Below are positions 856 to 64,000 of a DNA stretch of 64,000 nt, piece by piece. How positions within the stretch are numbered: position 1 is the stretch's first letter; the number at the start of each line of letters is the position of its first letter. The DNA comes from Nemertoderma westbladi. Lineage: Eukaryota > Animalia > Xenacoelomorpha. Both the position numbers and the translations under genes were made by a program. The stretch covers positions 1 through 64,000 of the forward strand of contig JAUCBJ010006506.1 of NCBI GenBank assembly GCA_032718475.1. The letters are read 5' to 3'. The notes beneath the pieces were generated by a model. That model ran no database searches and was not told where the DNA came from. It saw only the letters and a list, made by a program, of their open reading frames with translations.

Positions 856-1011
856 CAAATTCCAGCCTGACAGAAAAATCCCAAAAATACCATTAAATAA
901 TAATAGCCCAATACAGCGCCGCCTTCATCTATGTTCTTTAAACGTAGAATACTGCCAGCCAATAGGGAGGCAATGCCAATAGGTAGAAGCCAAACAATAG
1001 TTCGCATTAAC
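856..1011 (-). CDS. Internal coding exon (156 nt, phase 2/2) of a putative SLC1/EAAT-family dicarboxylate/amino acid:cation symporter, TM5-TM6 region
   Basis: Bounded by TATTTAATTTTTAG| (AG at 1013-1012) and |GTAAGT (855-850); length is divisible by 3. The peptide (R/K)LMRTIVWLLPIGIASLLAGSILRLKNIDEGGAVLGYYYLMVFLGFFCQAGI(W/C) aligns without gaps to the recalled SLC1 pattern W-x-x-P-[IV]-G-I-x-x-L-I-A-G-K-I...L-[GA]-x-Y-x-x-T-V-I-x-G-L-x-I-H. It lies inside track ORF 852..1055. Confidence 0.8.
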
Positions 1012-1048
1012 CTAAAAATTAAATAGGTACCAATGGATAGAGAGAGGT
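1012..1048 (-). promoter_or_regulatory. 3' splice acceptor with pyrimidine-rich tract (also the intronic part of the first satellite unit)
   Basis: The minus strand reads ACCTCTCTCTATCCATTGGTACCTATTTAATTTTTAG|GTTAATGCG, a T-rich tract ending in TAG immediately before the SLC1-like frame. Confidence 0.72.
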
Positions 1049-4000
1049 CAAACAATAGTTCGTATTAACATAAAAAATAAATAGGTACCAATGGATAGAG
1101 AGAGGTCAAACAATAGTTCGCATTAACCTAAAAAATAAATAGGTACCAATGGATAGAGAGAGGTCAAACAATAGTTCGTATTAACCTAAAAAATAAATAG
1201 GTACCAATGGATGGAGAGAGGTCAAACAATAGTTCGTATTAACATAAAAAATAAATAGGTACCAATGGATGGAGAGAGGTCAAACAATAGTTCGTATTAA
1301 CCTAAAAAATAAATAGGTACCAATGGATGGAGAGAGGTCAAACAATAGTTCGCATTAACATAAAAAATAAATAGGTACCAATGGATAGAGAGAGGTCAAA
1401 CAATAGTTCGTATTAACATAAAAAATAAATAGGTACCAATGGATAGAGAGAGGTCAAACAATAGTTCGCATTAACATAAAAAATAAATAGGTACCAATGG
1501 ATAGAGAGAGGTCAAACAATAGTTCGCATTAACATAAAAAATAAATAGGTACCAATGGATAGAGAGAGGTCAAACAATAGTTCGTATTAACATAAAAAAT
1601 AAATAGGTAACAATTGAGGGAGAGGTCAAACAATAGTTCGTATTAACATAAAAAATAAATAGGTACCAATGGATAGAGAGAGGTCAAACAATAGTTCGTA
1701 TTAACCTAAAAAATAAATAGGTACCAATGGATAGAGAGAGGTCAAACAATAGTTCGCATTAACATAAAAAATAAATAGGTACCAATGGATAGAGAGAGGT
1801 CAAACAATAGTTCGTATTAACATAAAAAATAAATAGGTACCAATGGATAGAGAGAGGTCAAACAATAGTTCGCATTAACATAAAAAATAAATAGGTACCA
1901 ATGGATAGAGAGAGGTCAAACAATAGTTCGCATTAACATAAAAAATAAATAGGTACCAATGGATAGAGAGAGGTCAAACAATAGTTCGTATTAACATAAA
2001 AAATAAATAGGTACCAATGGATAGAGAGAGGTCAAACAATAGTTCGTATTAACATAAAAAATAAATAGGTACCAATGGATAGAGAGAGGTCAAACAATAG
2101 TTCGTATTAACATAAAAAATAAATAGGTACCAATGGATAGAGAGAGGTCAAACAATAGTTCGCATTAACATAAAAAATAAATAGGTACCAATGGATAGAG
2201 AGAGGTCAAACAATAGTTCGCATTAACATAAAAAATAAATAGGTACCAATGGATAGAGAGGTCAAACAATAGTTCGCATTAACATAAAAAATAAATAGGT
2301 ACCAATGGATAGAGAGAGGTCAAACAATAGTTCGTATTAACATAAAAAATAAATAGGTACCAATGGATAGAGAGAGGTCAAACAATAGTTCGTATTAACA
2401 TAAAAAATAAATAGATACCAATTGATAGAGAGAGGTCAAACAATAGTTCGTATTAACATAAAAAATAAATAGGTACCAATGGATAGAGAGAGGTCAAACA
2501 ATAGTTCGCATTAACATAAAAAATAAATAGGTAACAATGGATAGAGAGAGGTCAAACAATAGTTCGTATTAACATAAAAAATAAATAGGTACCAATGGAT
2601 AGAGAGAGGTCAAACAATAGTTCGTATTAACCTAAAAAATAAATAGGTACCAATGGATAGAGAGAGGTCAAACAATAGTTCGCATTAACATAAAAAATAA
2701 ATAGGTAACAATGGATAGAGAGGTCAAACAATAGTTCGTATTAACATAAAAAATAAATAGGTAACAATGGATAGAGAGAGGTCAAACAATAGTTCGCATT
2801 AACATAAAAAATAAATAGGTAACAATGGATAGAGAGAGGTCAAACAATAGTTCGTATTAACATAAAAAATAAATAGGTAACAATGGATAGAGAGAGGTCA
2901 AACAATAGTTCGCATTAACCTAAAAAATAAATAGGTACCAATGGATAGAGAGGTCAAACAATAGTTCGTATTAACATAAAAAATAAATAGGTACCAAAGG
3001 ATAGAGAGAGGTCAAACAATAGTTCGTATTAACATAAAAAATAAATAGGTAACAATGGATAGAGAGAGGTCAAACAATAGTTCGCATTAACATAAAAAAT
3101 AAATAGGTACCAATGGATAGAGAGAGGTCAAACAATAGTTCGTATTAACATAAAAAATAAATAGGTAACAATGGATAGAGAGAGGTCAAACAATAGTTCG
3201 TATTAACATAAAAAATAAATAGGTAACAATGGATAGAGAGAGGTCAAACAATAGTTCGTATTAACATAAAAAATAAATAGGTACCAATGGATAGAGAGAG
3301 GTCAAACAATAGTTCGCATTAACCTAAAAAATAAATAGGTACCAATGGATAGAGTGAGGTCAAACAATAGTTCGCATTAACATAAAAAATAAATAGGTAC
3401 CAATGGATAGAGAGAGGTCAAACAATAGTTCGCATTAACCTAAAAAATAAATAGGTACCAATGGATAGAGAGAGGTCAAACAATAGTTCGTATTAACATA
3501 AAAAATAAATAGGTACCAATGGATAGAGAGAGGTCAAACAATAGTTCGTATTAACATAAAAAATAAATAGGTACCAATGGATAGAGAGAGGTCAAACAAT
3601 AGTTCGTATTAACATAAAAAATAAATAGGTACCAATGGATAGAGAGAGGTCAAACAATAGTTCGTATTAACATAAAAAATAAATAGGTACCAATTGATAG
3701 AGAGAGGTCAAACAATAGTTCGTATTAACATAAAAAATAAATAGGTACCAATGGATAGAGAGAGGTCAAACAATAGTTCGCATTAACATAAAAAATAAAT
3801 AGGTAACAATGGATAGAGAGAGGTCAAACAATAGTTCGTATTAACATAAAAAATAAATAGGTACCAATGGATAGAGAGAGGTCAAACAATAGTTCGTATT
3901 AACCTAAAAAATAAATAGGTAACAATTGAGGGAGAGGTCAAACAATAGTTCCCATTAACCTAAAAAATAAATAGGTACCAATGGATAGAGAGAGGTCAAA

Positions 4001-7000
4001 CAATAGTTCGTATTAACATAAAAAATAAATAGGTACCAATGGATAGAGAGAGGTCAAACAATAGTTCGTATTAACATAAAAAATAAATAGGTACCAATGG
4101 ATAGAGAGAGGTCAAACAATAGTTCGCATTAACATAAAAAATAAATAGGTACCAATGGATAGAGAGAGGTCAAACAATAGTTCGCATTAACATACAAAAT
4201 AAATAGGTAACAATTGAGGGAGAGGTCAAACAATAGTTCGCATTAACATAAAAAATAAATAGGTAACAATTGAGGGAGAGGTCAAACAATAGTTCGCATT
4301 AACATAAAAAATAAATAGGTACCAATGGATAGAGAGAGGTCAAACAATAGTTCGTATTAACATAAAAAATAAATAGGTACCAATGGATAGAGAGAGGTCA
4401 AACAATAGTTCGCATTAACCTAAAAAATAAATAGGTACCAATGGATAGAGAGAGGTCAAACAATAGTTCGTATTAACATAAAAAATAAATAGGTACCAAT
4501 GGATAGAGAGGTCAAACAATAGTTCGCATTAACCTAAAAAATAAATAGGTACCAATGGATAGAGAGAGGTCAAACAATAGTTCGTATTAACATAAAAAAT
4601 AAATAGGTACCAATGGATAGAGAGAGATCAAACAATAGTTCGTATTAACCTAAAAAATAAATAGTTACCAATGGATAGAGAGAGGTCAAACAATAGTTCG
4701 TATTAACATAAAAAATAAATAGGTACCAATGGATAGAGAGAGGTCAAACAATAGTTCGCATTAACATAAAAAATAAATAGGTACCAATGGATAGAGAGAG
4801 GTCAAACAATAGTTCGCATTAACCTAAAAAATAAATAGGTACCAATGGATAGAGAGAGGTCAAACAATAGTTCGTATTAACATAAAAAATAAATAGGTAC
4901 CAATGGATAGAGAGAGGTCAAACAATAGTTCGTATTAACATAAAAAATAAATAGGTACCAATGGATAGAGAGAGGTCAAACAATAGTTCGTATTAACATA
5001 AAAAATAAATAGGTACCAATGGATAGAGAGAGATCAAACAATAGTTCGTATTAACCTAAAAAATAAATAGGTACCAATGGATAGAGAGAGGTCAAACAAT
5101 AGTTCGTATTAACCTAAAAAATAAATAGGTACCAATGGATAGAGAGATCAAACAATAGTTCGTATTAACATAAAAAATAAATAGGTACCAATGGATAGAG
5201 AGAGGTCAAACAATAGTTCGTATTAACCTAAAAAATAAATAGGTACCAATGGATAGAGAGAGGTCAAACAATAGTTCGTATTAACATAAAAAATAAATAG
5301 GTACCAATGGATAGAGAGATCAAACAATAGTTCGTATTAACATAAAAAATAAATAGGTACCAATGGATAGAGAGAGGTCAAACAATAGTTCGCGTTAACA
5401 TAAAAAATAAATAGGTACCAATGGATAGAGAGAGGTCAAACAATAGTTCGCATTAACATAAAAAATAAATAGGTACCAATGGATAGAGAGAGGTCAAACA
5501 ATAGTTCGTATTAACATAAAAAATAAATAGGTACCAATGGATAGAGAGAGGTCAAACAATAGTTCGTATTAACATAAAAAATAAATAGGTACCAATGGAT
5601 AGAGAGAGGTCAAACAATAGTTCGTATTAACATAAAAAATAAATAGGTACCAATGGATAGAGAGAGGTCAAACAATAGTTCGTATTAACATAAAAAATAA
5701 ATAGATACCAATGGATAGAGAGATCAAACAATAAATAGGTACCAATGGATAGAGAGATCAAACAATAGTTCGTATTAACATAAAAAATAAATAGGTACCA
5801 ATGGATAGAGAGAGGTCAAACAATAGTTCGTATTAACATAAAAAATAAATAGGTACCAATGGATAGAGAGAGGTCAAACAATAGTTCGTATTAACATAAA
5901 AAATAAATAGGTACCAATGGATAGAGAGAGGTCAAACAATAGTTCGTATTAACATAAAAAATAAATAGGTACCAATGGATAGAGAGAGGTCAAACAATAG
6001 TTCGCATTAACATAAAAAATAAATAGGTACCAATGGATAGAGAGAGGTCAAACAATAGTTCGCATTAACATAAAAAATAAGTAGGTACCAATGGATAGAG
6101 AGGTCAAACAATAGTTCGTATTAACATAAAAAATAAATAGGTACCAATGGATAGAGAGAGGTCAAACAATAGTTCGCATTAACATAAAAAATAAGTAGGT
6201 ACCAATGGATAGAGAGGTCAAACAATAGTTCGTATTAACATAAAAAATAAATAGGTACCAATGGATAGAGAGGTCAAACAATAGTTCGTATTAACATAAA
6301 AAATAAATAGGTACCAATGGATAGAGAGAGGTCAAACAATAGTTCGTATTAACATAAAAAATAAATAGGTACCAATGGATAGAGAGAGGTCAAACAATAG
6401 TTCGCATTAACATAAAAAATAAGTAGGTACCAATGGATAGAGAGGTCAAACAATAGTTCGTATTAACATAAAAAATAAATAGGTACCAATGGATAGAGAG
6501 GTCAAACAATAGTTCGTATTAACATAAAAAATAAATAGGTACCAATGGATAGAGAGAGGTCAAACAATAGTTCGTATTAACCTAAAAAATAAATAGGTAC
6601 CAATGGATAGAGAGAGATCAAACAATAGTTCGTATTAACATAAAAAATAAATAGGTACCAATGGATAGAGAGAGGTCAAACAATAGTTCGCATTAACATA
6701 AAAAATAAGTAGGTACCAATGGATAGAGAGAGGTCAAACAATAGTTCGCATTAACATAAAAAATAAGTAGGTACCAATGGATAGAGAGAGGTCAAACAAT
6801 AGTTCGTATTAACATAAAAAATAAATAGGTACCAATGGATAGAGAGAGGTCAAACAATAGTTCGCATTAACATAAAAAATAAGTAGGTACCAATGGATAG
6901 AGAGGTCAAACAATAGTTCGTATTAACATAAAAAATAAATAGGTACCAATGGATAGAGAGGTCAAACAATAGTTCGTATTAACATAAAAAATAAATAGGT

Positions 7001-10000
7001 ACCAATGGATAGAGAGAGGTCAAACAATAGTTCGCATTAACATAAAAAATAAATAGGTACCAATGGATAGAGAGGTCAAACAATAGTTCGTATTAACATA
7101 AAAAATAAATAGGTACCAATGGATAGAGAGAGGTCAAACAATAGTTCGTATTAACCTAAAAAATAAATAGGTACCAATGGATAGAGAGAGATCAAACAAT
7201 AGTTCGTATTAACATAAAAAATAAATAGGTACCAATGGATAGAGAGAGGTCAAACAATAGTTCGTATTAACATAAAAAATAAATAGGTACCAATGGATAG
7301 AGAGAGGTCAAACAATAGTTCGTATTAACATAAAAAATAAATAGGTACCAATGGATAGAGAGAGATCAAACAATAGTTCGTATTAACCTAAAAAATAAAT
7401 AGGTACCAATGGATAGAGAGATCAAACAGTAGTTCGTATTAACATAAAAAATAAATAGGTACCAATGAATAGAGAGAGGTCAAACAATAGTTCGTATTAA
7501 CATAAAAAATAAATAGGTACCAATGGATAGAGAGATCAAACAATAAATAGGTACCAATGGATAGAGAGGTCAAACAATAGTTCGTATTAACATAAAAAAT
7601 AAATAGGTACCAATGGATAGAGAGAGGTCAAACAATAGTTCGTATTAACATAAAAAATAAATAGGTACCAATGGATAGAGAGAGGTCAAACAATAGTTCG
7701 CATTAACATAAAAAATAAATAGGTACCAATGGATAGAGAGAGGTCAAACAATAGTTCGCGTTAACATAAAAAATAAATAGGTACCAATGGATAGAGAGAG
7801 GTCAAACAATAGTTCGTATTAACATAAAAAATAAATAGGTACCAATGGATAGAGAGAGGTCAAACAATAGTTCGTATTAACATAAAAAATAAATAGGTAC
7901 CAATGGATACAGGAGGTAAAACAATAGTTCGTATTAACATAAAAAATAAATAGGTACCAATGGATAGAGAGGTCAAACAATAGTTCGTATTAACATAAAA
8001 TATAAATAGGTAACAATTGAGGGAGAGGTCAAACAATAGTTCGCATTAACATAAAAAATAAATAGGTACCAATGGATAGAGAGAGGTCAAACAATAGTTC
8101 GTATTAACATAAAAAATAAATAGGTACCAATGGATAGAGAGAGGTCAAACAATAGTTCGCATTAACCTAAAAAATAAATAGGTACCAATGGATAGAGAGA
8201 GGTCAAACAATAGTTCGTATTAACATAAAAAATAAATAGGTACCAATGGATAGAGAGGTCAAACAATAGTTCGCATTAACCTAAAAAATAAATAGGTACC
8301 AATGGATAGAGAGAGGTCAAACAATAGTTCGTATTAACATAAAAAATAAATAGGTACCAATGGATAGAGAGAGGTCAAACAATAGTTCGTATTAACATAA
8401 AAAATAAATAGGTACCAATGGATAGAGAGAGGTCAAACAATAGTTCGTATTAACATAAAAAATAAATAGGTACCAATGGATAGAGAGAGGTCAAACAATA
8501 GTTCGTATTAACATAAAAAATAAATAGGTACCAATGGATAGAGAGGTCAAACAATAGTTCGCATTAACCTAAAAAATAAATAGGTACCAATGGATAGAGA
8601 GAGATCAAACAATAGTTCGCATTAACCTAAAAAATAAATAGGTACCAATGGATAGAGAGAAGTCAAACAATAGTTCGCATTAACATAAAAAATAAATAGG
8701 TACCAATGGATAGAGAGAGGTCAAACAATAGTTCGCATTAACCTAAAAAATAAATAGGTACCAATGGATAGAGAGAAGTCAAACAATAGTTCGCATTAAC
8801 ATAAAAAATAAATAGGTACCAATGGATAGAGAGAGGTCAAACAATAGTTCGTATTAACATAAAAAATAAATAGGTACCAATGGATAGAGAGAGGTCAAAC
8901 AATAGTTCGTATTAACCTAAAAAATAAATAGGTACCAATGGATAGAGAGAAGTCAAACAATAGTTCGCATTAACATAAAAAATAAATAGGTACCAATGGA
9001 TAGAGAGAGGTCAAACAATAGTTCGTATTAACATAAAAAATAAATAGGTACCAATGGATAGAGAGAGGTCAAACAATAGTTCGTATTAACATAAAAAATA
9101 AATAGGTACCAATGGATAGAGAGAGGTCAAACAATAGTTCGCATTAACATAAAAAATAAATAGGTACCAATGGATAGAGAGAGGTCAAACAATAGTTCGT
9201 ATTAACATAAAAAATAAATAGGTACCAATGGATAGAGAGATCAAACAATAGTTCGCATTAACATAAAAAATAAATAGGTAACAATGGATAGAGAGAGGTC
9301 AAACAATAGTTCGTATTAACATAAAAAATAAATAGGTACCAATGGATAGAGAGATCAAACAATAGTTCGCATTAACATAAAAAATAAATAGGTACCAATG
9401 GATAGAGAGAGGTCAAACAATAGTTCGTATTAACATAAAAAATAAATAGGTAACAATGGATAGAGAGAGGTCAAACAATAGTTCGCATTAACATAAAAAA
9501 TAAATAGGTAACAATGGATAGAGAGAGATCAAACAATAGTTCGTATTAACATAAAAAATAAATAGGTACCAATGGATAGAGAGAGGTCAAACAATAGTTC
9601 GCATTAACATAAAAAATAAATAGGTAACAATGGATAGAGAGAGATCAAACAATAGTTCGTATTAACATAAAAAATAAATAGGTACCAATGGATAGAGAGA
9701 GGTCAAACAATAGTTCGCATTAACATAAAAAATAAATAGGTACCAATGGATAGAGAGAGGTCAAACAATAGTTCGTATTAACATAAAAAATAAATAGGTA
9801 CCAATGGATAGAGAGATCAAACAATAGTTCGTATTAACATAAAAAATAAATAGGTACCAATGGATAGAGAGAGGTCAAACAATAGTTCGCATTAACATAA
9901 AAAATAAATAGGTACCAATGGATAGAGAGAGGTCAAACAATAGTTCGTATTAACATAAAAAATAAATAGGTACCAATGGATAGAGAGAGGTCAAACAATA

Positions 10001-13000
10001 GTTCGCATTAACATAAAAAATAAATAGGTAACAATGGATAGAAAGAGGTCAAACAATAGTTCGCATTAACATAAAAAATAAATAGGTACCAATGGATAGA
10101 GAGAGGTCAAACAATAGTTCGCATTAACATAAAAAATAAATAGGTACCAATGGATAGAGAGAGGTCAAACAATAGTTCGTATTAACATAAAAAATAAATA
10201 GGTACCAATGGATAGAGAGAGGTCAAACAATAGTTCGTATTAACATAAAAAATAAATAGGTAACAATGGATAGAGAGAGGTCAAACAATAGTTCGCATTA
10301 ACATAAAAAATAAATAGGTAACAATGGATAGAGAGAGATCAAACAATAGTTCGTATTAACATAAAAAATAAATAGGTACCAATGGATAGAGAGAGGTCAA
10401 ACAATAGTTCGCATTAACATAAAAAATAAATAGGTAACAATGGATAGAGAGAGATCAAACAATAGTTCGTATTAACATAAAAAATAAATAGGTACCAATG
10501 GATAGAGAGAGGTCAAACAATAGTTCGCATTAACATAAAAAATAAATAGGTACCAATGGATAGAGAGAGGTCAAACAATAGTTCGTATTAACATAAAAAA
10601 TAAATAGGTACCAATGGATAGAGAGATCAAACAATAGTTCGTATTAACATAAAAAATAAATAGGTACCAATGGATAGAGAGATCAAACAATAGTTCGTAT
10701 TAACATAAAAAATAAATAGGTACCAATGAATAGAGAGAGGTCAAACAATAGTTCGTATTAACATAAAAAATAAATAGGTACCAATGGATAGAGAGAGGTC
10801 AAACAATAGTTCGTATTAACATAAAAAATAAATAGGTACCAATGGATAGAGAGATCAAACAATAGTTCGCATTAACATAAAAAATAAATAGGTACCAATG
10901 GATAGAGAGAGGTCAAACAATAGTTCGCATTAACATAAAAAATAAATAGGTACCAATGGATAGAGAGAGGTCAAACAATAGTTCGTATTAACATAAAAAA
11001 TAAATAGGTACCAATGGATAGAGAGAGGTCAAACAATAGTTCGTATTAACATAAAAAATAAATAGGTACCAATGGATAGAGAGATCAAACAATAGTTCGC
11101 ATTAACATAAAAAATAAATAGGTACCAATGGATAGAGAGAGGTCAAACAATAGTTCGCATTAACATAAAAAATAAATAGGTACCAAAGGATAGAGAGATC
11201 AAACAATAGTTCGCATTAACATAAAAAATAAATAGGTACCAATGGATAGAGAGATCAAACAATAGTTCGCATTAACATAAAAAATAAATAGGTACCAATG
11301 GATAAAGAGAGGTCAAACAATAGTTCGCATTAACATAAAAAATAAATAGGTACCAATGGATAGAGAGATCAAACAATAGTTCGTATTAACATAAAAAATA
11401 AATAGGTACCAATGGATAGAGAGAGGTCAAACAATAGTTCGTATTAACATAAAAAATAAATAGGTACCAATGGATAGAGAGATCAAACAATAGTTCGCAT
11501 TAACATAAAAAATAAATAGGTACCAATGGATAGAGAGATCAAACAATAGTTCGTATTAACATAAAAAATAAATAGGTACCAATGAATAGAGAGAGGTCAA
11601 ACAATAGTTCGTATTAACATAAAAAATAAATAGGTACCAATGGATAGAGAGAGGTCAAACAATAGTTCGCATTAACCTAAAAAATAAATAGGTACCAATG
11701 GATAGAGAGATCAAACAATAGTTCGTATTAACATAAAAAATAAATAGGTACCAATGGATAGAGAGAGGTCAAACAATAGTTCGTATTAACATAAAAAATA
11801 AATAGGTACCAATGGATAGGGAGAGGTCAAACAATAGTTCGTATTAACATAAAAAATAAATAGGTACCAATGGATAGAGAGAGGTCAAACAATAGTTCGT
11901 ATTAACATAAAAAATAAATAGGTACCAATGGATAGAGAGATCAAACAATAGTTCGCATTAACATAAAAAATAAATAGGTACCAATGGATAGAGAGATCAA
12001 ACAATAGTTCGTATTAACATAAAAAATAAATAGGTACCAATGAATAGAGAGAGGTCAAACAATAGTTCGTATTAACATAAAAAATAAATAGGTACCAATG
12101 GATAGAGAGAGGTCAAACAATAGTTCGCATTAACCTAAAAAATAAATAGGTACCAATGGATAGAGAGATCAAACAATAGTTCGTATTAACATAAAAAATA
12201 AATAGGTACCAATGGATAGAGAGAGGTCAAACAATAGTTCGTATTAACATAAAAAAAAAATAGGTACCAATGGATAGAGAGATCAAACAATAAATAGGTA
12301 CCAATGGATAGAGAGAGGTCAAACAATAGTTCGTATTAACATAAAAAATAAATAGGTACCAATGGATAGAGAGATCAAACAATAGTTCGTATTAACATAA
12401 AAAATAAATAGGTACCAATGGATAGAGAGAGGTCAAACAATAGTTCGTATTAACATAAAAAATAAATAGGTACCAATGGATAGAGAGAGGTCAAACAATA
12501 GTTCGCATTAACATAAAAAATAAATAGGTACCAATGGATAGAGAGATCAAACAATAGTTCGCATTAACATAAAAAATAAATAGGTACCAATGGATAGAGA
12601 GATCAAACAATAGTTCGTATTAACATAAAAAATAAATAGGTACCAATGGATAGAGAGATCAAACAATAGTTCGCATTAACATAAAAAATAAATAGGTACC
12701 AATGGATAGAGAAATCAAACAATAGTTCGTATTAACATAAAAAATAAATAGGTACCAATGAATAGAGAGAGGTCAAACAATAGTTCGTATTAACATAAAA
12801 AATAAATAGGTACCAATGGATAGAGAGAGGTCAAACAATAGTTCGCATTAACCTAAAAAATAAATAGGTACCAATGGATAGAGAGATCAAACAATAGTTC
12901 GTATTAACATAAAAAATAAATAGGTACCAATGGATAGAGAGAGGTCAAACAATAGTTCGTATTAACATAAAAAATAAATAGGTACCAATGGATAGAGAGA

Positions 13001-16000
13001 TCAAACAATAAATAGGTACCAATGGATAGAGAGAGGTCAAACAATAGTTCGTATTAACATAAAAAATAAATAGGTACCAATGGATAGAGAGATCAAACAA
13101 TAGTTCGTATTAACATAAAAAATAAATAGGTACCAATGGATAGAGAGAGGTCAAACAATAGTTCGTATTAACATAAAAAATAAATAGGTACCAATGGATA
13201 GAGAGATCAAACAATAGTTCGTATTAACATAAAAAATAAATAGGTACCAATGGATAGAGAGAGGTCAAACAATAGTTCGTATTAACATAAAAAATAAATA
13301 GGTACCAATGGATAGAGAGATCAAACAATAGTTCGTATTAACATAAAAAATAAATAGGTACCAATGGATAGAGAGAGGTCAAACAATAGTTCGTATTAAC
13401 ATAAAAAATAAATAGGTACCAATGGATAGAGAGATCAAACAATAGTTCGTATTAACATAAAAAATAAATAGGTACCAATGGATAGAGAGAGGTCAAACAA
13501 TAGTTCGTATTAACATAAAAAATAAATAGGTACCAATGGATAGAGAGAGGTCAAACAATAGTTCGCATTAACCTAAAAAATAAATAGGTACCAATGGATA
13601 GAGAGAGGTCAAACAATAGTTCGCATTAACCTAAAAAATAAATATGTACCAATGGATAGAGAGAGGTCAAACAATAGTTCGCATTAACATAAAAAATAAA
13701 TAGGTACCAATGGATAGAGAGAGGTCAAACAATAGTTCGCATTAACATAAAAAATAAATAGGTAACAATGGATAGAGAGAGGTCAAACAATAGTTCGTAT
13801 TAACATAAAAAATAAATAGGTACCAATGGATAGAGAGATCAAACAATAGTTCGCATTAACATAAAAAATAAATAGGTACCAATGGATAGAGAGATCAAAC
13901 AATAGTTCGCATTAACATAAAAAATAAATAGGTACCAATGGATAGAGAGAGGTCAAACAATAGTTCGTATTAACCTAAAAAATAAATAGGTACCAATGGA
14001 TAGAGAGAGGTCAAACAATAGTTCGCATTAACATAAAAAATAAATAGGTACCAATGGATAGAGAGATCAAACAATAGTTCGCATTAACATAAAAAATAAA
14101 TAGGTACCAATGGATAGAGAGAGGTCAAACAATAGTTCGTATTAACCTAAAAAATAAATAGGTACCAATGGATAGAGAGAGGTCAAACAATAGTTCGCAT
14201 TAACATAAAAAATAAATAGGTACCAATGGATAGAGAGAGGTCAAACAATAGTTCGTATTAACATAAAAAATAAATAGGTACCAATGGATGGAGAGAGGTC
14301 AAACAATAGTTCGTATTAACATAAAAAATAAATAGGTACCAATGGATAGAGAGATCAAACAATAGTTCGTATTAACATAAAAAATAAATAGGTACCAATG
14401 GATAGAGAGATCAAACAATAGTTCGTATTAACATAAAAAATAAATAGGTACCAATGGATAGAGAGAGGTCAAACAATAGTTCGTATTAACATAAAAAATA
14501 AATAGGTACCAATGGATAGAGAGATCAAACAATAAATAGGTACCAATGGATAGAGAGAGGTCAAACAATAGTTCGTATTAACATAAAAAATAAATAGGTA
14601 CCAATGGATAGAGAGATCAAACAATAGTTCGTATTAACATAAAAAATAAATAGGTACCAATGGATAGAGAGATCAAACAATAGTTCGTATTAACATAAAA
14701 AATAAATAGGTACCAATGGATAGAGAGATCAAACAATAAATAGGTACCAATGGATAGAGAGAGGTCAAACAATAGTTCGCATTAACCTAAAAAATAAATA
14801 GGTACCAATGGATAGAGAGAGGTCAAACAATAGTTCGCATTAACCTAAAAAATAAATAGGTACCAATGGATAGAGAGAGGTCAAACAATAGTTCGCATTA
14901 ACATAAAAAATAAATAGGTACCAATGGATAGAGAGAGGTCAAACAATAGTTCGCATTAACATAAAAAATAAATAGGTACCAATGGATAGAGAGATCAAAC
15001 AATAAATAGGTACCAATGGATAGAGAGAGGTCAAACAATAGTTCGTATTAACATAAAAAATAAATAGGTACCAATGGATAGAGAGATCAAACAATAGTTC
15101 GTATTAACATAAAAAATAAATAGGTACCAATGGATAGAGAGAGGTCAAACAATAGTTCGTATTAACATAAAAAATAAATAGGTACCAATGGATAGAGAGA
15201 TCAAACAATAGTTCGTATTAACATAAAAAATAAATAGGTACCAATGGATAGAGAGGTCAAACAATAGTTCGTATTAACATAAAAAATAAATAGGTACCAA
15301 TGGATAGAGAGATCAAACAATAGTTCGTATTAACATAAAAAATAAATAGGTACCAATGGATAGAGAGAGGTCAAACAATAGTTCGCATTAACATAAAAAA
15401 TAAATAGGTACCAATGGATAGAGAGAGGTCAAACAATAGTTCGTATTAACATAAAAAATAAATAGGTACCAATGGATAGAGAGAGGTCAAACAATAGTTC
15501 GCATTAACATAAAAAATAAATAGGTACCAATGGATAGAGAGAGGTCAAACAATAGTTCGCATTAACATAAAAAATAAATAGGTACCAATGGATAGAGAGA
15601 TCAAACAATAGTTCGTATTAACATAAAAAATAAATAGGTACCAATGGATAGAGAGATCAAACAATAGTTCGTATTAACATAAAAAATAAATAGGTACCAA
15701 TGGATAGAGAGATCAAACAATAGTTCGTATTAACATAAAAAATAAATAGGTACCAATGGATAGAGAGAGGTCAAACAATAGTTCGCATTAACCTAAAAAA
15801 TAAATAGGTACCAATGGATAGAGAGATCAAACAATAGTTCGTATTAACATAAAAAATAAATAGGTACCAATGGATAGAGAGATCAAACAATAGTTCGTAT
15901 TAACATAAAAAATAAATAGGTACCAATGGATAGAGAGAGGTCAAACAATAGTTCGCATTAACCTAAAAAATAAATAGGTACCAATGGATAGAGAGATCAA

Positions 16001-19000: not shown

Positions 19001-19299
19001 GGTACCAATGGATAGAGAGAGGTCAAACAATAGTTCGCATTAACATAAAAAATAAATAGGTACCAATGGATAGAGAGAGGTCAAACAATAGTTCGCATTA
19101 ACCTAAAAAATAAATAGGTACCAATGGATAGAGAGAGGTCAAACAATAGTTCGCATTAACCTAAAAAATAAATAGGTACCAATGGATAGAGAGAGGTCAA
19201 ACAATAGTTCGCATTAACCTAAAAAATAAATAGGTACCAATGGATAGAGAGAGGTCAAACAATAGTTCGCATTAACCTAAAAAATAAATAGGTACCAAT

Positions 19300-34200: not shown

Positions 34201-34980
34201 TCGCATTAACATAAAAAATAAATAGGTACCAATGGATAGAGAGAGATCAAACAATAGTTCGTATTAACATAAAAAATAAATAGGTACCAATGGATAGAGA
34301 GATCAAACAATAGTTCGCATTAACATAAAAAATAAATAGGTACCAATGGATAGAGAGAGATCAAACAATAGTTCGTATTAACATAAAAAATAAATAGGTA
34401 CCAATGGATAGAGAGAGGTCAAACAATAGTTCGTATTAACATAAAAAATAAATAGGTACCAATGGATAGAGAGATCAAAAAATAAATAGGTACCAATGGA
34501 TAGAGAGATCAAACAATAGTTCGCATTAACATAAAAAATAAATAGGTACCAATGGATAGAGAGAGATCAAACAATAGTTCGTATTAACATAAAAAATAAA
34601 TAGGTACCAATGGATAGAGAGATCAAAAAATAAATAGGTACCAATGGATAGAGAGAGATCAAACAATAGTTCGTATTAACATAAAAAATAAATAGGTACC
34701 AATGGATAGAGAGAGATCAAACAATAGTTCGTATTAACATAAAAAATAAATAGGTACCAATGGATAGAGAGATCAAACAATAGTTCGCATTAACATAAAA
34801 AATAAATAGGTACCAATGGATAGAGAGAGATCAAACAATAGTTCGTATTAACATAAAAAATAAATAGGTACCAATGGATAGAGAGAGGTCAAACAATAGT
34901 TCGTATTAACATAAAAAATAAATAGGTACCAATGGATAGAGAGATCAAAAAATAAATAGGTACCAATGGATAGAGAGATC
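19300..34980. repeat. Dispersed ~2.7-kb duplicated block: ~19.3-22.0 kb matches ~32.3-35.0 kb
   Basis: Track ORFs 19371..19556 and 32334..32519 differ by one residue (offset 12,963). Further along, the offset is 12,969, explained by a 5-bp AAATA insertion near 33061 and a unit 1 bp shorter near 20243. Confidence 0.8.
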
Positions 34981-52000: not shown

Positions 52001-55000
52001 GAGATCAAACAATAGTTCGTATTAACATAAAAAATAAATAGGTACCAATGGATAGAGAGATCAAACAATAGTTCGTATTAACATAAAAAATAAATAGGTA
52101 CCAATGGATAGAGAGAGGTCAAACAATAGTTCGCATTAACATAAAAAATAAATAGGTACCAATGGATAGAGAAATCAAACAATAGTTCGTATTAACATAA
52201 AAAATAAATAGGTACCAATGGATAGAGAGAGGTCAAACAATAGTTCGTATTAACATAAAAAATAAATAGGTACCAATGGATAGAGAGAGGTCAAACAATA
52301 GTTCGCATTAACCTAAAAATTAAATAGGTACCAATGGATAGAGAGAGGTCAAACAATAGTTCGTATTAACATAAAAAATAAATAGATACCAATGGATAGA
52401 GAGAGGTCAAACAATAGTTCGCATTAACATAAAAAATAAATAGGTACCAATGGATAGAGAGAGGTCAAACAATAGTTCGCATTAACATAAAAAATAAATA
52501 GGTACCAATGGATAGAGAGAGGTCAAACAATAGTTCGTATTAACATAAAAAATAAATAGGTACCAATGGATAGAGAGAGGTCAAACAATAGTTCGTATTA
52601 ACATAAAAAATAAATAGGTACCAATGGATAGAGAGAGGTCAAACAATAGTTCGTATTAACATAAAAAATAAATAGGTACCAATGGATAGAGAGATCAAAC
52701 AATAAATAGGTACCAATGGATAGAGAGAGGTCAAACAATAGTTCGTATTAACATAAAAAATAAATAGGTACCAATGGATAGAGAGATCAAAAAATAAATA
52801 GGTACCAATGGATAGAGAGAGATCAAACAATAGTTCGTATTAACATAAAAAATAAATAGGTACCAATGGATAGAGAGAGGTCAAACAATAGTTCGTATTA
52901 ACATAAAAAATAAATAGGTACCAATGGATAGAGAGATCAAACAATAAATAGGTACCAATGGATAGAGAGAGGTCAAACAATAGTTCGTATTAACATAAAA
53001 AATAAATAGGTACCAATGGATAGAGAGATCAAAAAATAAATAGGTACCAATGGATAGAGAGAGGTCAAACAATAGTTCGTATTAACATAAAAAATAAATA
53101 GGTACCAATGGATAGAGAGAGGTCAAACAATAGTTCGTATTAACATAAAAAATAAATAGGTACCAATGGATAGAGAGATCAAAAATTAAATAGGTACCAA
53201 TGGATAGAGAGAGGTCAAACAATAGTTCGTATTAACATAAAAAATAAATAGGTACCAATGGATAGAGAGAGGTCAAACAATAGTTCGCATTAACCTAAAA
53301 ATTAAATAGGTACCAATGGATAGAGAGATCAAACAATAGTTCGTATTAACATAAAAAATAAATAGGTACCAATGGATAGAGAGAGGTCAAACAATAGTTC
53401 GCATTAACATAAAAAATAAATAGGTACCAATGGATAGAGAGAGGTCAAACAATAGTTCGCATTAACCTAAAAATTAAATAGGTACCAATGGATAGAGAGA
53501 TCAAACAATAGTTCGTATTAACATAAAAAATAAATAGGTACCAATGGATAGAGAGAGGTCAAACAATAGTTCGTATTAACATAAAAAATAAATAGGTACC
53601 AATGGATAGAGAGAGGTCAAACAATAGTTCGCATTAACCTAAAAAATAAATAGGTACCAATGGATAGAGAGAGGTCAAAAAATAGTTCGTATTAACATAA
53701 AAAATAAATAGGTACCAATGAATAGAGAGAGGTCAAACAATAGTTCGCATTAACATAAAAAATAAATAGGTACCAATGGATAGAGAGAGGTCAAACAATA
53801 GTTCGTATTAACATAAAAAATAAATAGGTACCAATGGATAGAGAGAGGTCAAACAATAGTTCGCATTAACCTAAAAAATAAATAGGTACCAATGGATAGA
53901 GAGAGGTCAAACAATAGTTCGCATTAACCTAAAAAATAAATAGGTACCAATGGATAGAGAGAGGTCAAACAATAGTTCGCATTAACCTAAAAATTAAATA
54001 GGTACCAATGGATAGAGAGATCAAACAATAGTTCGTATTAACATAAAAAATAAATAGGTACCAATGGATAGAGAGATCAAACAATAGTTCGTATTAACAT
54101 AAAAAATAAATAGGTACCAATGGATAGAGAGATCAAACAATAAATAGGTACCAATGGATAGAGAGATCAAACAATAGTTCGTATTAACATAAAAAATAAA
54201 TAGGTACCAATGGATAGAGAGAGGTCAAACAATAGTTCGCATTAACCTAAAAAATAAATAGGTACCAATGGATAGAGAGAGGTCAAACAATAGTTCGCAT
54301 TAACCTAAAAAATAAATAGGTACCAATGGATAGAGAGAGGTCAAACAATAGTTCGCATTAACCTAAAAATTAAATAGGTACCAATGGATAGAGAGATCAA
54401 ACAATAGTTCGTATTAACATAAAAAATAAATAGGTACCAATGGATAGAGAGATCAAACAATAGTTCGTATTAACATAAAAAATAAATAGGTACCAATGGA
54501 TACAGGAGGTAAAACAATAGTTCGTATTAACATAAAAAATAAATAGGTACCAATGGATAGAGAGGTCAAACAATAGTTCGCATTAACCTAAAAAATAAAT
54601 AGGTACCAATGGATAGAGAGGTCAAACAATAGTTCGCATTAACCTAAAAAATAAATAGGTACCAATGGATAGAGAGGTCAAACAATAGTTCGTATTAACA
54701 TAAAAAATAAATAGGTACCAATGGATAGAGAGAGGTCAAACAATAGTTCGTATTAACATAAAAAATAAATAGGTACCAATGGATGGAGAGAGGTCAAACA
54801 ATAGTTCGTATTAACCTAAAAAATAAATAGGTACCAATGGATAGAGAGAGGTCAAACAATAGTTCGCATTAACATAAAAAATAAATAGGTACCAATGGAT
54901 AGAGAGAGGTCAAACAATAGTTCGCATTAACATAAAAAATAAATAGGTACCAATGGATAGAGAGAGGTCAAACAATAGTTCGTATTAACATAAAAAATAA

Positions 55001-55973
55001 ATAGGTAACAATGGATAGAGAGAGGTTAAACAATAGTTCGCATTAACATAAAAAATAAATAGGTACCAATGGATAGAGAGATCAAAAAATAAATAGGTAC
55101 CAATGGATAGAGAGAGATCAAACAATAGTTCGCATTAACATAAAAAATAAATAGGTACCAATGGATAGAGAGATCAAACAATAGTTCGCGTTAACATAAA
55201 AAATAAATAGTTACCAATGGATAGAGAGATCAAACAATAAATAGGTACCAATGGATAGAGAGGTCAAACAATAGTTCGCATTAACCTAAAAAATAAATAG
55301 GTACCAATGGATAGAGAGATCAAACAATAAATAGGTACCAATGGATAGAGAGAGGTCAAACAATAGTTCGCATTAACATAAAAAATAAATAGGTACCAAT
55401 GGATAGAGAGAGGTCAAACAATAGTTCGTATTAACATAAAAAATAAATAGGTACCAATGGATAGAGAGATCAAACAATAAATAGGTACCAATGGATAGAG
55501 AGAGGTCAAACAATAGTTCGCATTAACATAAAAAATAAATAGGTACCAATGGATAGAGAGATCAAACAATAAATAGGTACCAATGGATAGAGAGATCAAA
55601 CAATAAATAGGTACCAATGGATAGAGAGAGGTCAAACAATAGTTCGCATTAACATAAAAAATAAATAGGTACCAATGGATAGAGAGATCAAACAATAAAT
55701 AGGTACCAATGGATAGAGAGATCAAACAATAAATAGGTACCAATGGATAGAGAGGTCAAACAATAGTTCGCATTAACCTAAAAAATAAATAGGTACCAAT
55801 GGATAGAGAGATCAAACAATAAATAGGTACCAATGGATAGAGAGGTCAAACAATAGTTCGCATTAACCTAAAAAATAAATAGGTACCAATGGATAGAGAG
55901 GTCAAACAATAGTTCGCATTAACCTAAAAAATAAATAGGTACCAATGGATAGAGAGGTCAAACAATAGTTCGT

Positions 55974-58900
55974 ATTAACATAAAAAATAAATAGGTACCA
56001 ATGGATAGAGAGATCAAACAATAAATAGGTACCAATGGATAGAGAGGTCAAACAATAGTTCGCATTAACCTAAAAAATAAATAGGTACCAATGGATAGAG
56101 AGATCAAACAATAAATAGGTACCAATGGATAGAGAGAGGTCAAACAATAGTTCGCATTAACATAAAAAATAAATAGGTACCAATGGATAGAGAGATCAAA
56201 AAATAAATAGGTACCAATGGATAGAGAGGTCAAACAATAGTTCGCATTAACATAAAAAATAAATAGGTACCAATGGATAGAGAGAGGTCAAACAATAGTT
56301 CGTATTAACATAAAAAATAAATAGGTACCAATTGATAGAGAGAGGTCAAACAATAGTTCGTATTAACATAAAAAATAAATAGGTACCAATGGATAGAGAG
56401 AGGTCAAACAATAGTTCGTATTAACATAAAAAATAAATAGGTACCAATGGATAGAGAGAGGTCAAACAATAGTTCGCATTAACATAAAAAATAAATAGGT
56501 ACCAATGGATAGAGAGATCAAAAAATAAATAGGTACCAATGGATAGAGAGGTCAAACAATAGTTCGCATTAACATAAAAAATAAATAGGTACCAATGGAT
56601 AGAGAGAGGTCAAACAATAGTTCGCATTAACATAAAAAATAAATAGGTACCAATGGATAGAGAGATCAAAAAATAAATAGGTACCAATGGATAGAGAGAG
56701 GTCAAACAATAGTTCGCATTAACATAAAAAATAAATAGGTACCAATTGATAGAGAGAGGTCAAACAATAGTTCGTATTAACATAAAAAATAAATAGGTAC
56801 CAATTGATAGAGAGAGGTCAAACAATAGTTCGTATTAACATAAAAAATAAATAGGTACCAATGGATAGAGAGAGGTCAAACAATAGTTCGCATTAACATA
56901 AAAAATAAATAGGTACCAATGGATTGAGAGATCAAAAAATAAATAGGTACCAATGGATAGAGAGGTCAAACAATAGTTCGCATTAACATAAAAAATAAAT
57001 AGGTACCAATGGATAGAGAGAGGTCAAACAATAGTTCGCATTAACATAAAAAATAAATAGGTACCAATGGATAGAGAGATCAAAAAATAAATAGGTACCA
57101 ATGGATAGAGAGAGGTCAAACAATAGTTCGCATTAACATAAAAAATAAATAGGTACCAATTGATAGAGAGAGGTCAAACAATAGTTCGCATTAACCTAAA
57201 AAATAAATAGGTACCAATGGATAGAGAGAGGTCAAACAATAGTTCGCATTAACATAAAAAATAAATAGGTACCAATGGATAGAGAGATCAAAAAATAAAT
57301 AGGTACCAATGGATAGAGAGATCAAAAAATAAATAGGTACCAATGGATAGAGAGAGGTCAAACAATAGTTCGAATTAACATAAAAAATAAATAGGTACCA
57401 ATGGATAGAGAGAGGTCAAACAATAGTTCGCATTAACATAAAAAATAAATAGGTACCAATGGATAGAGAGAGGTCAAACAATAGTTCGCATTAACATAAA
57501 AAATAAATAGGTACCAATGGAAAGAGAGAGATCAAACAATAGTTCGAATTAACATAAAAAATAAATAGGTACCAATGGATAGAGAGAGGTCAAACAATAG
57601 TTCGCATTAACATAAAAAATAAATAGGTACCAATGGATAGAGAGAGATCAAACAATAGTTCGAATTAACATAAAAAATAAATAGGTACCAATGGATAGAG
57701 AGAGGTCAAACAATAGTTCGCATTAACATAAAAAATAAATAGGTACCAATGGATAGAGAGAGGTCAAACAATAGTTCGTATTAACATAAAAAATAAATAG
57801 GTACCAATGGATAGAGAGATCAAAAAATAAATAGGTACCAATGGATAGAGAGGTCAAACAATAGTTCGAATTAACATAAAAAATAAATAGGTACCAATGG
57901 ATAGAGAGATCAAACAATAAATAGGTACCAATGGATAGAGAGGTCAAACAATAGTTCGCATTAACCTAAAAAATAAATAGGTACCAATGGATAGAGAGAT
58001 CAAACAATAAATAGGTACCAATGGATAGAGAGAGGTCAAACAATAGTTCGCATTAACATAAAAAATAAATAGGTACCAATGGATAGAGAGATCAAAAAAT
58101 AAATAGGTACCAATGGATAGAGAGGTCAAACAATAGTTCGCATTAACATAAAAAATAAATAGGTACCAATGGATAGAGAGAGGTCAAACAATAGTTCGTA
58201 TTAACATAAAAAATAAATAGGTACCAATTGATAGAGAGAGGTCAAACAATAGTTCGTATTAACATAAAAAATAAATAGGTACCAATGGATAGAGAGAGGT
58301 CAAACAATAGTTCGTATTAACATAAAAAATAAATAGGTACCAATGGATAGAGAGAGGTCAAACAATAGTTCGCATTAACATAAAAAATAAATAGGTACCA
58401 ATGGATAGAGAGATCAAAAAATAAATAGGTACCAATGGATAGAGAGGTCAAACAATAGTTCGCATTAACATAAAAAATAAATAGGTACCAATGGATAGAG
58501 AGAGGTCAAACAATAGTTCGCATTAACATAAAAAATAAATAGGTACCAATGGATAGAGAGATCAAAAAATAAATAGGTACCAATGGATAGAGAGAGGTCA
58601 AACAATAGTTCGCATTAACATAAAAAATAAATAGGTACCAATTGATAGAGAGAGGTCAAACAATAGTTCGTATTAACATAAAAAATAAATAGGTACCAAT
58701 TGATAGAGAGAGGTCAAACAATAGTTCGTATTAACATAAAAAATAAATAGGTACCAATGGATAGAGAGAGGTCAAACAATAGTTCGCATTAACATAAAAA
58801 ATAAATAGGTACCAATGGATTGAGAGATCAAAAAATAAATAGGTACCAATGGATAGAGAGGTCAAACAATAGTTCGCATTAACATAAAAAATAAATAGGT

Positions 58901-59805
58901 ACCAATGGATAGAGAGAGGTCAAACAATAGTTCGCATTAACATAAAAAATAAATAGGTACCAATGGATAGAGAGATCAAAAAATAAATAGGTACCAATGG
59001 ATAGAGAGAGGTCAAACAATAGTTCGCATTAACATAAAAAATAAATAGGTACCAATTGATAGAGAGAGGTCAAACAATAGTTCGCATTAACCTAAAAAAT
59101 AAATAGGTACCAATGGATAGAGAGAGGTCAAACAATAGTTCGCATTAACATAAAAAATAAATAGGTACCAATGGATAGAGAGATCAAAAAATAAATAGGT
59201 ACCAATGGATAGAGAGATCAAAAAATAAATAGGTACCAATGGATAGAGAGAGGTCAAACAATAGTTCGAATTAACATAAAAAATAAATAGGTACCAATGG
59301 ATAGAGAGAGGTCAAACAATAGTTCGCATTAACATAAAAAATAAATAGGTACCAATGGATAGAGAGAGGTCAAACAATAGTTCGCATTAACATAAAAAAT
59401 AAATAGGTACCAATGGAAAGAGAGAGATCAAACAATAGTTCGAATTAACATAAAAAATAAATAGGTACCAATGGATAGAGAGAGGTCAAACAATAGTTCG
59501 CATTAACATAAAAAATAAATAGGTACCAATGGATAGAGAGAGATCAAACAATAGTTCGAATTAACATAAAAAATAAATAGGTACCAATGGATAGAGAGAG
59601 GTCAAACAATAGTTCGCATTAACATAAAAAATAAATAGGTACCAATGGATAGAGAGAGGTCAAACAATAGTTCGTATTAACATAAAAAATAAATAGGTAC
59701 CAATGGATAGAGAGATCAAAAAATAAATAGGTACCAATGGATAGAGAGGTCAAACAATAGTTCGAATTAACATAAAAAATAAATAGGTACCAATGGATAG
59801 AGAGA
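55974..59805. repeat. Higher-order tandem duplication within the satellite, period 1,896 bp
   Basis: Rare variants recur at exactly +1,896: GGATTGAG (56925/58821), GGAAAGAG (57522/59418), and the identical track ORFs 56048..56233 and 57944..58129. Confidence 0.9.
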
Positions 59806-62800
59806 GGTCAAACAATAGTTCGCATTAACATAAAAAATAAATAGGTACCAATGGATAGAGAGAGGTCAAACAATAGTTCGTATTAACATAAAAAATAAAT
59901 AGGTACCAATGGATAGAGAGAGGTCAAACAATAGTTCGTATTAACATAAAAAATAAATAGGTACCAATGGATAGAGAGGTCAAACAATAGTTCGAATTAA
60001 CATAAAAAATAAATAGGTACCAATGGATAGAGAGAGGTCAAACAATAGTTCGTATTAACATAAAAAATAAATAGGTACCAATGGATAGAGAGAGGTCAAA
60101 CAATAGTTCGTATTAACATAAAAAATAAATAGGTACCAATGGATAGAGAGATCAAACAATAGTTCGCATTAACATAAAAAATAAATAGGTACCAATGGAT
60201 AGAGAGATCAAACAATAGTTCGTATTAACATAAAAAATAAATAGGTACCAATGGATAGAGAGAGGTCAAACAATAAATAGGTACCAATGGATAGAGAGGT
60301 CAAACAATAGTTCGTATTAACATAAAAAATAAATAGGTACCAATGGATAGAGAGATCAAACAATAGTTCGCATTAACATAAAAAATAAATAGGTACCAAT
60401 GGATAGAGAGAGGTCAAACAATAGTTCGAATTAACATAAAAAATAAATAGGTACCAATGGATAGAGAGATCAAAAAATAAATAGGTACCAATGGATAGAG
60501 AGATCAAAAAATAAATAGGTACCAATGGATAGAGAGAGGTCAAACAATAGTTCGCATTAACATAAAAAATAAATAGGTACCAATGGATAGAGAGAGGTCA
60601 AACAATAGTTCGTATTAACATAAAAAATAAATAGGTACCAATGGATAGAGAGAGGTCAAACAATAGTTCGTATTAACATAAAAAATAAATAGGTACCAAT
60701 GGATAGAGAGAGGTCAAACAATAGTTCGTATTAACATAAAAAATAAATAGGTACCAATGGATAGAGAGATCAAACAATAGTTCGCATTAACATAAAAAAT
60801 AAATAGGTACCAATGGATAGAGAGATCAAACAATAGTTCGTATTAACATAAAAAATAAATAGGTACCAATGGATAGAGAGAGGTCAAACAATAAATAGGT
60901 ACCAATGGATAGAGAGAGGTCAAACAATAGTTCGTATTAACCTAAAAAATAAATAGGTACCAATGGATAGAGAGATCAAACAATAGTTCGTATTAACATA
61001 AAAAATAAATAGGTACCAATGGATAGAGAGAGGTCAAACAATAAATAGGTACCAATGGATAGAGAGATCAAACAATAGTTCGTATTAACATAAAAAATAA
61101 ATAGGTACCAATGGATAGAGAGAGGTCAAACAATAAATAGGTACCAATGGATAGAGAGAGGTCAAACAATAGTTCGTATTAACATAAAAAATAAATAGGT
61201 ACCAATGGATAGAGAGATCAAACAATAGTTCGCATTAACATAAAAAATAAATAGGTACCAATGGATAGAGAGATCAAACAATAGTTCGTATTAACATAAA
61301 AAATAAATAGGTACCAATGGATAGAGAGAGGTCAAACAATAAATAGGTACCAATAGATAGAGAGGTCAAACAATAGTTCGAATTAACATAAAAAATAAAT
61401 AGGTACCAATGGATAGAGAGATCAAAAAATAAATAGGTACCAATGGATAGAGAGATCAAAAAATAAATAGGTACCAATGGATAGAGAGATCAAACAATAG
61501 TTCGTATTAACATAAAAAATAAATAGGTACCAATGGATAGAGAGAGGTCAAACAATAGTTCGTATTAACATAAAAAATAAATAGGTACCAATGGATAGAG
61601 AGAGGTCAAACAATAGTTCGTATTAACATAAAAAATAAATAGGTACCAATGGATAGAGAGAGGTCAAACAATAGTTCGTATTAACATAAAAAATAAATAG
61701 GTACCAATGGATAGAGAGAGGTCAAACAATAGTTCGTATTAACATAAAAAATAAATAGGTACCAATGGATAGAGAGAGGTCAAACAATAGTTCGTATTAA
61801 CATAAAAAATAAATAGGTACCAATGGATAGAGAGAGGTCAAACAATAGTTCGTATTAACATAAAAAATAAATAGGTACCAATGGATAGAGAGAGGTCAAA
61901 CAATAGTTCGTATTAACATAAAAAATAAATAGGTACCAATGGATAGAGAGAGGTCAAACAATAGTTCGAATTAACATAAAAAATAAATAGGTACCAATGG
62001 ATAGAGAGAGGTCAAACAATAGTTCGTATTAACATAAAAAATAAATAGGTACCAATGGATAGAGAGAGGTCAAACAATAGTTCGCATTAACATAAAAAAT
62101 AAATAGGTACCAATGGATAGAGAGAGGTCAAACAATAGTTCGTATTAACATAAAAAATAAATAGGTACCAATGGATAGAGAGAGGTCAAACAATAGTTCG
62201 TATTAACATAAAAAATAAATAGGTACCAATGGATAGAGAGAGGTCAAACAATAGTTCGAATTAACATAAAAAATAAATAGGTACCAATGGATAGAGAGAG
62301 GTCAAACAATAGTTCGAATTAACATAAAAAATAAATAGGTACCAATGGATAGAGAGATCAAAAAATAAATAGGTACCAATGGATAGAGAGATCAAAAAAT
62401 AAATAGGTACCAATGGATAGAGAGGTCAAACAATAGTTCGTATTAACATAAAAAATAAATAGGTACCAATGGATAGAGAGAGGTCAAACAATAGTTCGAA
62501 TTAACATAAAAAATAAATAGGTACCAATGGATAGAGAGATCAAAAAATAAATAGGTACCAATGGATAGAGAGATCAAAAAATAAATAGGTACCAATGGAT
62601 AGAGAGAGGTCAAACAATAGTTCGAATTAACATAAAAAATAAATAGGTACCAATGGATAGAGAGAGGTCAAACAATAGTTCGTATTAACATAAAAAATAA
62701 ATAGGTACCAATGGATAGAGAGAGGTCAAACAATAGTTCGTATTAACATAAAAAATAAATAGGTACCAATGGATAGAGAGATCAAACAATAGTTCGTATT

Positions 62801-64000
62801 AACATAAAAAATAAATAGGTACCAATGGATAGAGAGAGGTCAAACAATAGTTCGTATTAACATAAAAAATAAATAGGTACCAATGGATAGAGAGATCAAA
62901 CAATAGTTCGTATTAACATAAAAAATAAATAGGTACCAATGGATAGAGAGAGGTCAAACAATAGTTCGTATTAACATAAAAAATAAATAGGTACCAATGG
63001 ATAGAGAGATCAAAAAATAAATAGGTACCAATGGATAGAGAGATCAAACAATAGTTCGCATTAACATAAAAAATAAATAGGTACCAATGGATAGAGAGAG
63101 GTCAAACAATAGTTCGTATTAACATAAAAAAAAAATAGGTACCAATGGATAGAGAGATCAAACAATAGTTCGTATTAACATAAAAAATAAATAGGTACCA
63201 ATGGATAGAGAGAGGTCAAACAATAGTTCGTATTAACATAAAAAATAAATAGGTACCAATGGATAGAGAGGTCAAACAATAGTTCGCATTAACATAAAAA
63301 ATAAATAGGTACCAATGGATAGAGAGGTCAAACAATAGTTCGCATTAACATAAAAAATAAATAGGTACCAATGGATAGAGAGATCAAACAATAGTTCGTA
63401 TTAACATAAAAAATAAATAGGTACCAATGGATAGAGAGAGGTCAAACAATAGTTCGTATTAACATAAAAAATAAATAGGTACCAATGGATAGAGAGAGGT
63501 CAAACAATAGTTCGTATTAACATAAAAAATAAATAGGTACCAATGGATAGAGAGAGATCAAACAATAGTTCGCATTAACATAAAAAATAAATAGGTACCA
63601 ATGGATAGAGAGATCAAAAAATAAATAGGTACCAATGGATAGAGAGAGGTCAAACAATAGTTCGCATTAACATAAAAAATAAATAGGTACCAATGGATAG
63701 AGAGATCAAACAATAAATAGGTACCAATGGATAGAGAGAGGTCAAACAATAGTTCGCATTAACATAAAAAATAAATAGGTACCAATGGATAGAGAGATCA
63801 AAAAATAAATAGGTACCAATGGATAGAGAGATCAAAAAATAAATAGGTACCAATGGATAGAGAGGGGTCAAACAATAGTTCGTATTAACATAAAAAATAA
63901 ATAGGTACCAATGGATAGAGAGATCAAACAATAGTTCGAATTAACATAAAAAATAAATAGGTACCAATGGATAGAGAGGTCAAACAATAGTTCGCATTAA

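Follow-up and report, generated by a model that had tools for sequence, protein, structure and literature searches.

The stretch of DNA analysed here, referred to as the window, comprises 64,000 nucleotides of a Nemertoderma westbladi contig (JAUCBJ010006506.1) and contains a single exon of an SLC1-like gene on the minus strand, lying between a retrotransposon fragment and a tandem array (Table 1). The 52-amino-acid piece encoded by the exon matched the Pfam SDF family at E = 0.008, with a score of 15.6 that lies under the curated cut-off of 27.9. When the same 52-residue peptide was searched against solved structures, SLC1 chains accounted for all ten of the ten best matches, with EAAT2 chains matched at E = 1.3e-3 (22.3 bits). 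Two further sequence searches with the exon gave no match and a single match at 48%, respectively.

We considered whether the apparent splice acceptor is simply coding sequence, since the frame stays open to 1064 and this longer frame raised the EAAT2 match from 22.3 to 26.1 bits (E = 9e-5). This was rejected because a contig from another sample (X4; 3,113 nt, depth 240), which matches the window over 853-1011 with one difference and departs from it at both ends, leaves the window at 1011. In both loose ends of X4 the frame continues without a stop (30 letters on each side, translated by hand), and the upstream loose end resembles the EAAT residues that align with the longer frame. Since X4 has zero cover at 790-849 and on the array, it is likely a transcript assembly, though the run is recorded as 'DNA?'. 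The AG adjoining this SLC1-family exon is thus its real splice acceptor, and use of that site is seen in this one spliced contig; contigs drop rare forms, and the absent array cover says nothing on decoy use. The preliminary description, made from the letters alone, had thus assumed the correct boundary and had correctly assigned an AG to the exon-adjacent repeat copy, while its caveat that the gene could be an unexpressed pseudogene is disfavoured by the spliced, in-frame X4 contig. Sample S1 has the same exon variant at 918 as X4 and a contig that spans the exon to 1020 at full single-copy depth, so the junction is likely the same on the spliced allele. Other samples differ from the window within the exon, silently at 918 (X1, X4) and with Ala replaced by Thr at 917 (X1, X3), the codon effects being read by hand.

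The reverse transcriptase of the downstream intron is open for 263 codons in the sense direction of the host gene and lies about 70 nt from the donor. Copies elsewhere extend beyond 785, as very deep loose ends show, and the summed depth, about 40,000-60,000 times that of the single-copy exon (X1-X3), points to a very abundant family; relatives at 44-59% identity include sequences from amphioxus and ctenophore.

Table 1. Features of the window, with the evidence on which each is placed
Feature	Position	Strand	Basis
5'-truncated non-LTR retrotransposon reverse transcriptase, in the downstream intron and outside the finding	1..785	-	Pfam RVT_1, E=5e-24
Splice donor GTAAGT of the SLC1-like exon	850..855	-	sequence; X4 contig departs at 853, with three bases placeable on either side
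Coding exon of SLC1/EAAT (glutamate transporter family) gene, 156 nt, phase 2 at both ends	856..1011	-	Pfam SDF, EAAT2 matches, X4 contig
True splice acceptor AG	1012..1013	-	X4 contig diverges from the window exactly after 1011
Intronic tandem array, 58-bp unit, open at the window end	991..64000	-	decomposition
Exon-adjacent repeat unit (37 nt of intron end followed by 21 nt of exon start), template of the array	991..1048	-	decomposition
TTTGAC, formed at each unit junction: in-frame TGA at which any decoy would stop, plus branch-point-like motif, A at -37	1047..1052	-	sequence; use as branch point inferred
Unit 2, nearest decoy, AT, changed base at 1070	1049..1106	-	sequence
AG-poor tract, with blocks recurring at 20275-21984 and 38436-41485	33244..36957	.	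block comparison
AG-rich tract, recent copies of 25717-27336 (9/25, 7/22 and 7/19 units AG)	45740..48689	.	block comparison

The array was decomposed by cutting at a fixed anchor. It had been described as starting at 1049, which is in fact the start of unit 2; the real start is at 991, and the terminal unit (991-1048) covers the real splice boundary. Beyond this exon-adjacent unit there are 1,140 others (768 of 58 bp, 254 of 56, 107 of 34, five of 36 and six of other length), and 190 of these reiterate the acceptor intact. Among the 1,028 units that bear the site, 838 (81.5%) have AT and 190 (18.5%) have AG, in line with the preliminary description, which had noted an AG>AT change in a clear majority of copies and had put AG at about one in five by eye. 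AT is the derived state. A hexamer count over the window gave 190 occurrences of AACCTA, the true acceptor included, and 838 of AACATA. Upstream of the true acceptor, AG occurs on the gene strand in these 190 units and nowhere else, and in the 112 units without a site, which are the 34/36-bp forms, the acceptor is deleted. These short units, found from 5692 to 64000, arose when the 22-24 bp separating a pair of near-identical 7-mers were lost, and they are denser distally. From 991 to 64000 an AATAAA also occurs in nearly every unit on the plus strand, which is antisense to the gene; on the gene strand the consensus unit lacks this hexamer.

Two other positions commonly differ from the exon-adjacent unit, -8 in 1,020 of 1,028 units (99%) and +7 in 591 of 1,028 (58%), and eight of the 190 AG decoys are identical to that unit at all three common sites. 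The -8 change lengthens the T-run of the decoys, so it would not weaken a decoy, and at this position the edge unit may be the changed one. Its base at -8 recurs in eight full units and one 34-bp unit, at 30339-30680 and 51864-54372. As these are all 30-54 kb away, with none in the first 29 kb, the edge unit has not recently seeded its neighbourhood.

The two alleles are distributed in patches. Seven AG-dense or AG-free stretches had been named beforehand, and all were as stated when counted: AG is present in 9/13 units at 18.5-19.3 kb, 25/57 at 23.7-27.2 kb and 19/51 at 45.5-48.5 kb, and in 0/47 at 8.95-11.65 kb, 0/51 at 33.45-36.75 kb, 0/47 at 38.2-41.25 kb and 0/44 beyond 60.95 kb. The scarcity of AG in the last 8 kb (5/116) weighs against neutral turnover. 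The patchiness exceeded that of shuffled arrays (dispersion 2.67 versus a 99.9th percentile of 1.69), and three other common variants were equally patchy (dispersion 2.8-3.4). Block comparison identified 17 duplicated blocks above the shuffled maximum, with AG-rich blocks copied as well. Two of the AG-free tracts, at 33-37 and 38-41 kb, consist in part of mutual copies and are thus not independent. The AG share inside blocks scoring at least 12 was 71/367 (19.3%) versus 119/661 (18.0%) outside them, with 18.1% versus 18.7% at score 15 and 16.1% versus 19.4% at a score of at least 20, in a test of weak power against weak selection. The longest exact block is a perfect tandem duplication of 37 units (~1.9 kb) at 55989-59780, which is either recent or a local assembly feature.

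An assembly artefact is disfavoured for the array as a whole, because its k-mer depth is high in each of three runs, which represent two samples (S1, S2). From contig depth we inferred an AG share of ~19% in X2 and 17% in X3, and class shares near those of the window. The estimate covers 25 of 237 pieces, each given a haplotype according to how many differences it showed; for the two classes with 2 differences the window served as the guide, and X2 may itself be the source of the window. These contig depths would imply ~2,300 units in X2 versus 54 in X3, and depth therefore cannot be read as copy number.

On balance, we lean towards reading the AT majority as an early mutation multiplied by block duplication under neutral turnover, and not as the outcome of a purge of splice sites. 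A 58-bp piece across the SLC1-family acceptor was amplified to more than 1,100 intronic copies, presumably by unequal exchange or slippage, and early mutations at -8, -1 and +7 would have risen to high frequency with the copying of founder blocks. In favour of this reading, 190 intact decoys persist in the array, and intact junction copies are tolerated elsewhere, in F7, LMNB2 and PDGF (available text of PMC1557585) and in CBS 844ins68 (available text of PMC2630376). On the same grounds, since published junction repeats mostly keep intact copies, we set the prior for a required loss at about a tenth, by our own judgement.

The preliminary description had proposed instead that the array may have been tolerated because a splice-dead unit spread preferentially through it. 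Array-wide, the signals expected of such a process were not observed: AG showed no gradient with distance from the exon (Spearman rho -0.007 over the array), and neither the units nearest the exon nor the recent expansions were depleted of intact sites, unit 2 alone, with its AT, being in keeping with a depletion. Three of the five nearest units are AG (binomial P=0.047 for an excess). Rare mutations number 60 in 838 AT units (0.072 per unit) and 5 in 190 AG units (0.026 per unit), a difference that is not significant on distinct changes (29 versus 4). Since AT units thus have no deficit of rare mutations, there is no sign of a recent AT sweep. Gene-strand G>T changes are seen at five of eight possible sites, and the odds that one of the three common changes strikes the AG are 10-11%. 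Pointing the other way, towards selection, a new gene-strand AG was created by none of the 35 other substitutions, with ~2 expected (P=0.10 type-matched, 0.03 region-stratified); one of the 35 falls at a creator site, but on the other background.

To these counts we added toy simulations in which blocks were duplicated and deleted while the edge stayed frozen, with variants polarised against the edge unit and no indels, run under four or five hand-picked settings and accepted only when 25-55 variants were present. Under neutrality AG fell below 50% in 2-9% of accepted runs (4-20% given two to four common variants) and at least three sites rose above 50% in 7-34%, whereas an AG share of 8-35% was reached in 0.3-2%. 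The suggestion that the AT frequency is compatible with neutral turnover therefore fares unevenly: it agrees with neighbouring sites that differ in 58% and 99% of units, but the neutral toys seldom yield the observed share. A dead founder without continued selection gave 8-35% AG in 2-13% of runs.

In its strong form, where the array was possible only because splice-dead units displaced live ones, the splice-dead proposal is very improbable. The AT majority does fall on the invariant G, as this form would have it, but with a strong penalty (5% per AG) fewer than 5% of units kept AG in 88-100% of accepted runs, with 8-35% AG in 0-5%, and the real array retains 190 decoys and AG-rich blocks that were recently copied. 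Of the original proposal, what survives is a local or weak version, which may hold.

One such version is weak array-wide selection, in which each decoy costs slight mis-splicing and AG-rich blocks fix somewhat less often. We regard it as improbable, although a 1% penalty per AG gave 8-35% AG in 7-27% of the runs accepted (14-121 for each setting) against the neutral 0.3-2%. The lack of AG-creating substitutions (0/35) and the 112 further units without a site also agree with it. However, neither the absence of a distance gradient nor the lack of an AG deficit in recent blocks is as it would predict, and far decoys have no donor partner. Moreover, 107 of the 112 siteless units stand on a background that is AT in 231 of 244 site-bearing units, so these deletions likely removed a site already dead.

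How a decoy could matter depends on what would follow from its use. All 190 decoys reach a stop at the seventh codon. The nearest intact AGs precede the true acceptor by 116, 174 and 290 nt, and their use would lengthen the exon from 156 nt to 272, 330 and 446 nt, respectively. A motif search for donors within the array found no GT[AG]AG and no GTAAG, the GTs present being weak; splice-site strength was judged by motif only. Under exon definition, pairing with the real donor would be limited to the few decoys that lie closest to it. The 190 intact decoys, each followed by 21 nt of exon and with no consensus donor in the array, would thus mostly be ignored, and rare mis-spliced RNA would probably be subject to nonsense-mediated decay. 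Pseudo-exons are said to far outnumber real exons in the available text of PMC1557585.

The intact copies could serve as stepping points for recursive splicing through an intron of more than 63 kb, given its great length and the AG followed by GTTAAT in each intact unit. We give this reading almost no credence. A recursive splice site has an AG followed by a consensus donor, and GTTAAT is far from that consensus; the same hexamer begins the true exon, which is included.

The other local version concerns unit 2. An AG 58 nt upstream of the true acceptor would compete for the donor and yield a 214-nt exon with a stop, so that haplotypes with a dead unit 2 would have survived and that unit would have seeded most of the array, with deeper AT copies hitchhiking. 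Unit 2 is indeed AT and every decoy use ends in a stop, and toys that required a dead site in unit 2 alone gave 8-35% AG in 13-30% of accepted runs. The joint pattern (8-35% AG, at least two of the first five units AG, unit 2 dead) was obtained in 4-8% of these runs versus 0.06-0.5% of neutral ones, a 16-73-fold better fit, or 6-35-fold with a further condition (neutral counts nonzero). Yet this model was picked after the AT in unit 2 was known and begins from an already rescued state, which places its prior below the apparent fit; with 81.5% AT, unit 2 would be AT by chance four times in five. The intact AGs at 116, 174 and 290 nt would also still yield exons of 272-446 nt. A precedent is offered by the title of Yang et al. 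2000 (cited in PMC1557585 and PMC8826174), who reportedly found that a substitution in the second 31-bp repeat of the CBS VNTR prevents alternative splicing; there, as with the AT unit 2, the changed copy lies next to the real site, although the CBS repeat is on the donor side and its array is small. Against it, the intact duplicated intron/exon junction of CBS 844ins68 is described as harmless in the available text of PMC2630376. Taken together, we consider selection on the nearest copy an unlikely explanation, if one to be taken seriously.

More broadly, it is conceivable, though doubtful, that splicing fidelity set the sequence of this 60-130 kb satellite, either because the nearest copy had to lose its AG or because each AG was slightly costly. 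If true, selection on the host gene would have left a direct footprint in the composition of a satellite. Neutral turnover and host-gene filtering of arrays are hard to tell apart, since most satellites lack a base of known effect. Here every unit is a copy of one real acceptor in a live or dead form, and the question becomes countable across haplotypes and testable with minigenes. Even under the neutral turnover that we favour, an exon that is found correctly behind at least 190 copies of its own acceptor constitutes an extreme natural test of exon definition.

A literature search on selection shaping splice-site copies in arrays, covering few subscription journals and no supplements, returned nothing relevant. 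The array itself is of a known kind, ~45-200 times larger than its human counterparts. Human junction minisatellites comprise the 37-bp repeat of F7 IVS7, the 31-bp repeat of CBS IVS13, the 100-bp repeat of LMNB2, the 81-bp repeat of PDGF and that of the interferon-inducible gene 6-16, and according to the available text F7, LMNB2 and PDGF use the real donor only, the two nearest copies being used in addition in 6-16 and CBS (PMC1557585). The present array resembles the F7, CBS and LMNB2 type in that its first unit spans the real junction and intronic copies repeat the site; in the human arrays most of the pseudo-sites are silent, with only the nearest used, if any. As far as that text describes them, the human arrays lie on the donor side with 5-25 units, whereas this one lies on the acceptor side with more than 1,100 (at least 63 kb), and, unlike theirs, most of its copies are changed at an invariant base. 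Closer in orientation is CBS 844ins68, where a duplicated intron/exon junction precedes the exon and normal mRNA is made through use of the downstream site; the available text calls these sites 'donor', but the junction that it names and the title of Romano 2002 point to 3' sites (PMC2630376). That case involves one extra copy, which is intact, compared to more than 1,100 copies here, mostly AT.

A further parallel is offered by the Drosophila Y chromosome, where introns are far longer than the one described here and the satellites within them are simple sequences that are not known to derive from a splice junction. In the available accounts of these Y-linked genes, giant introns are filled with satellite and the gene is expressed across the tandem DNA (PMC6508621, PMC11207136). 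In both systems an expressed gene extends across intronic tandem DNA.
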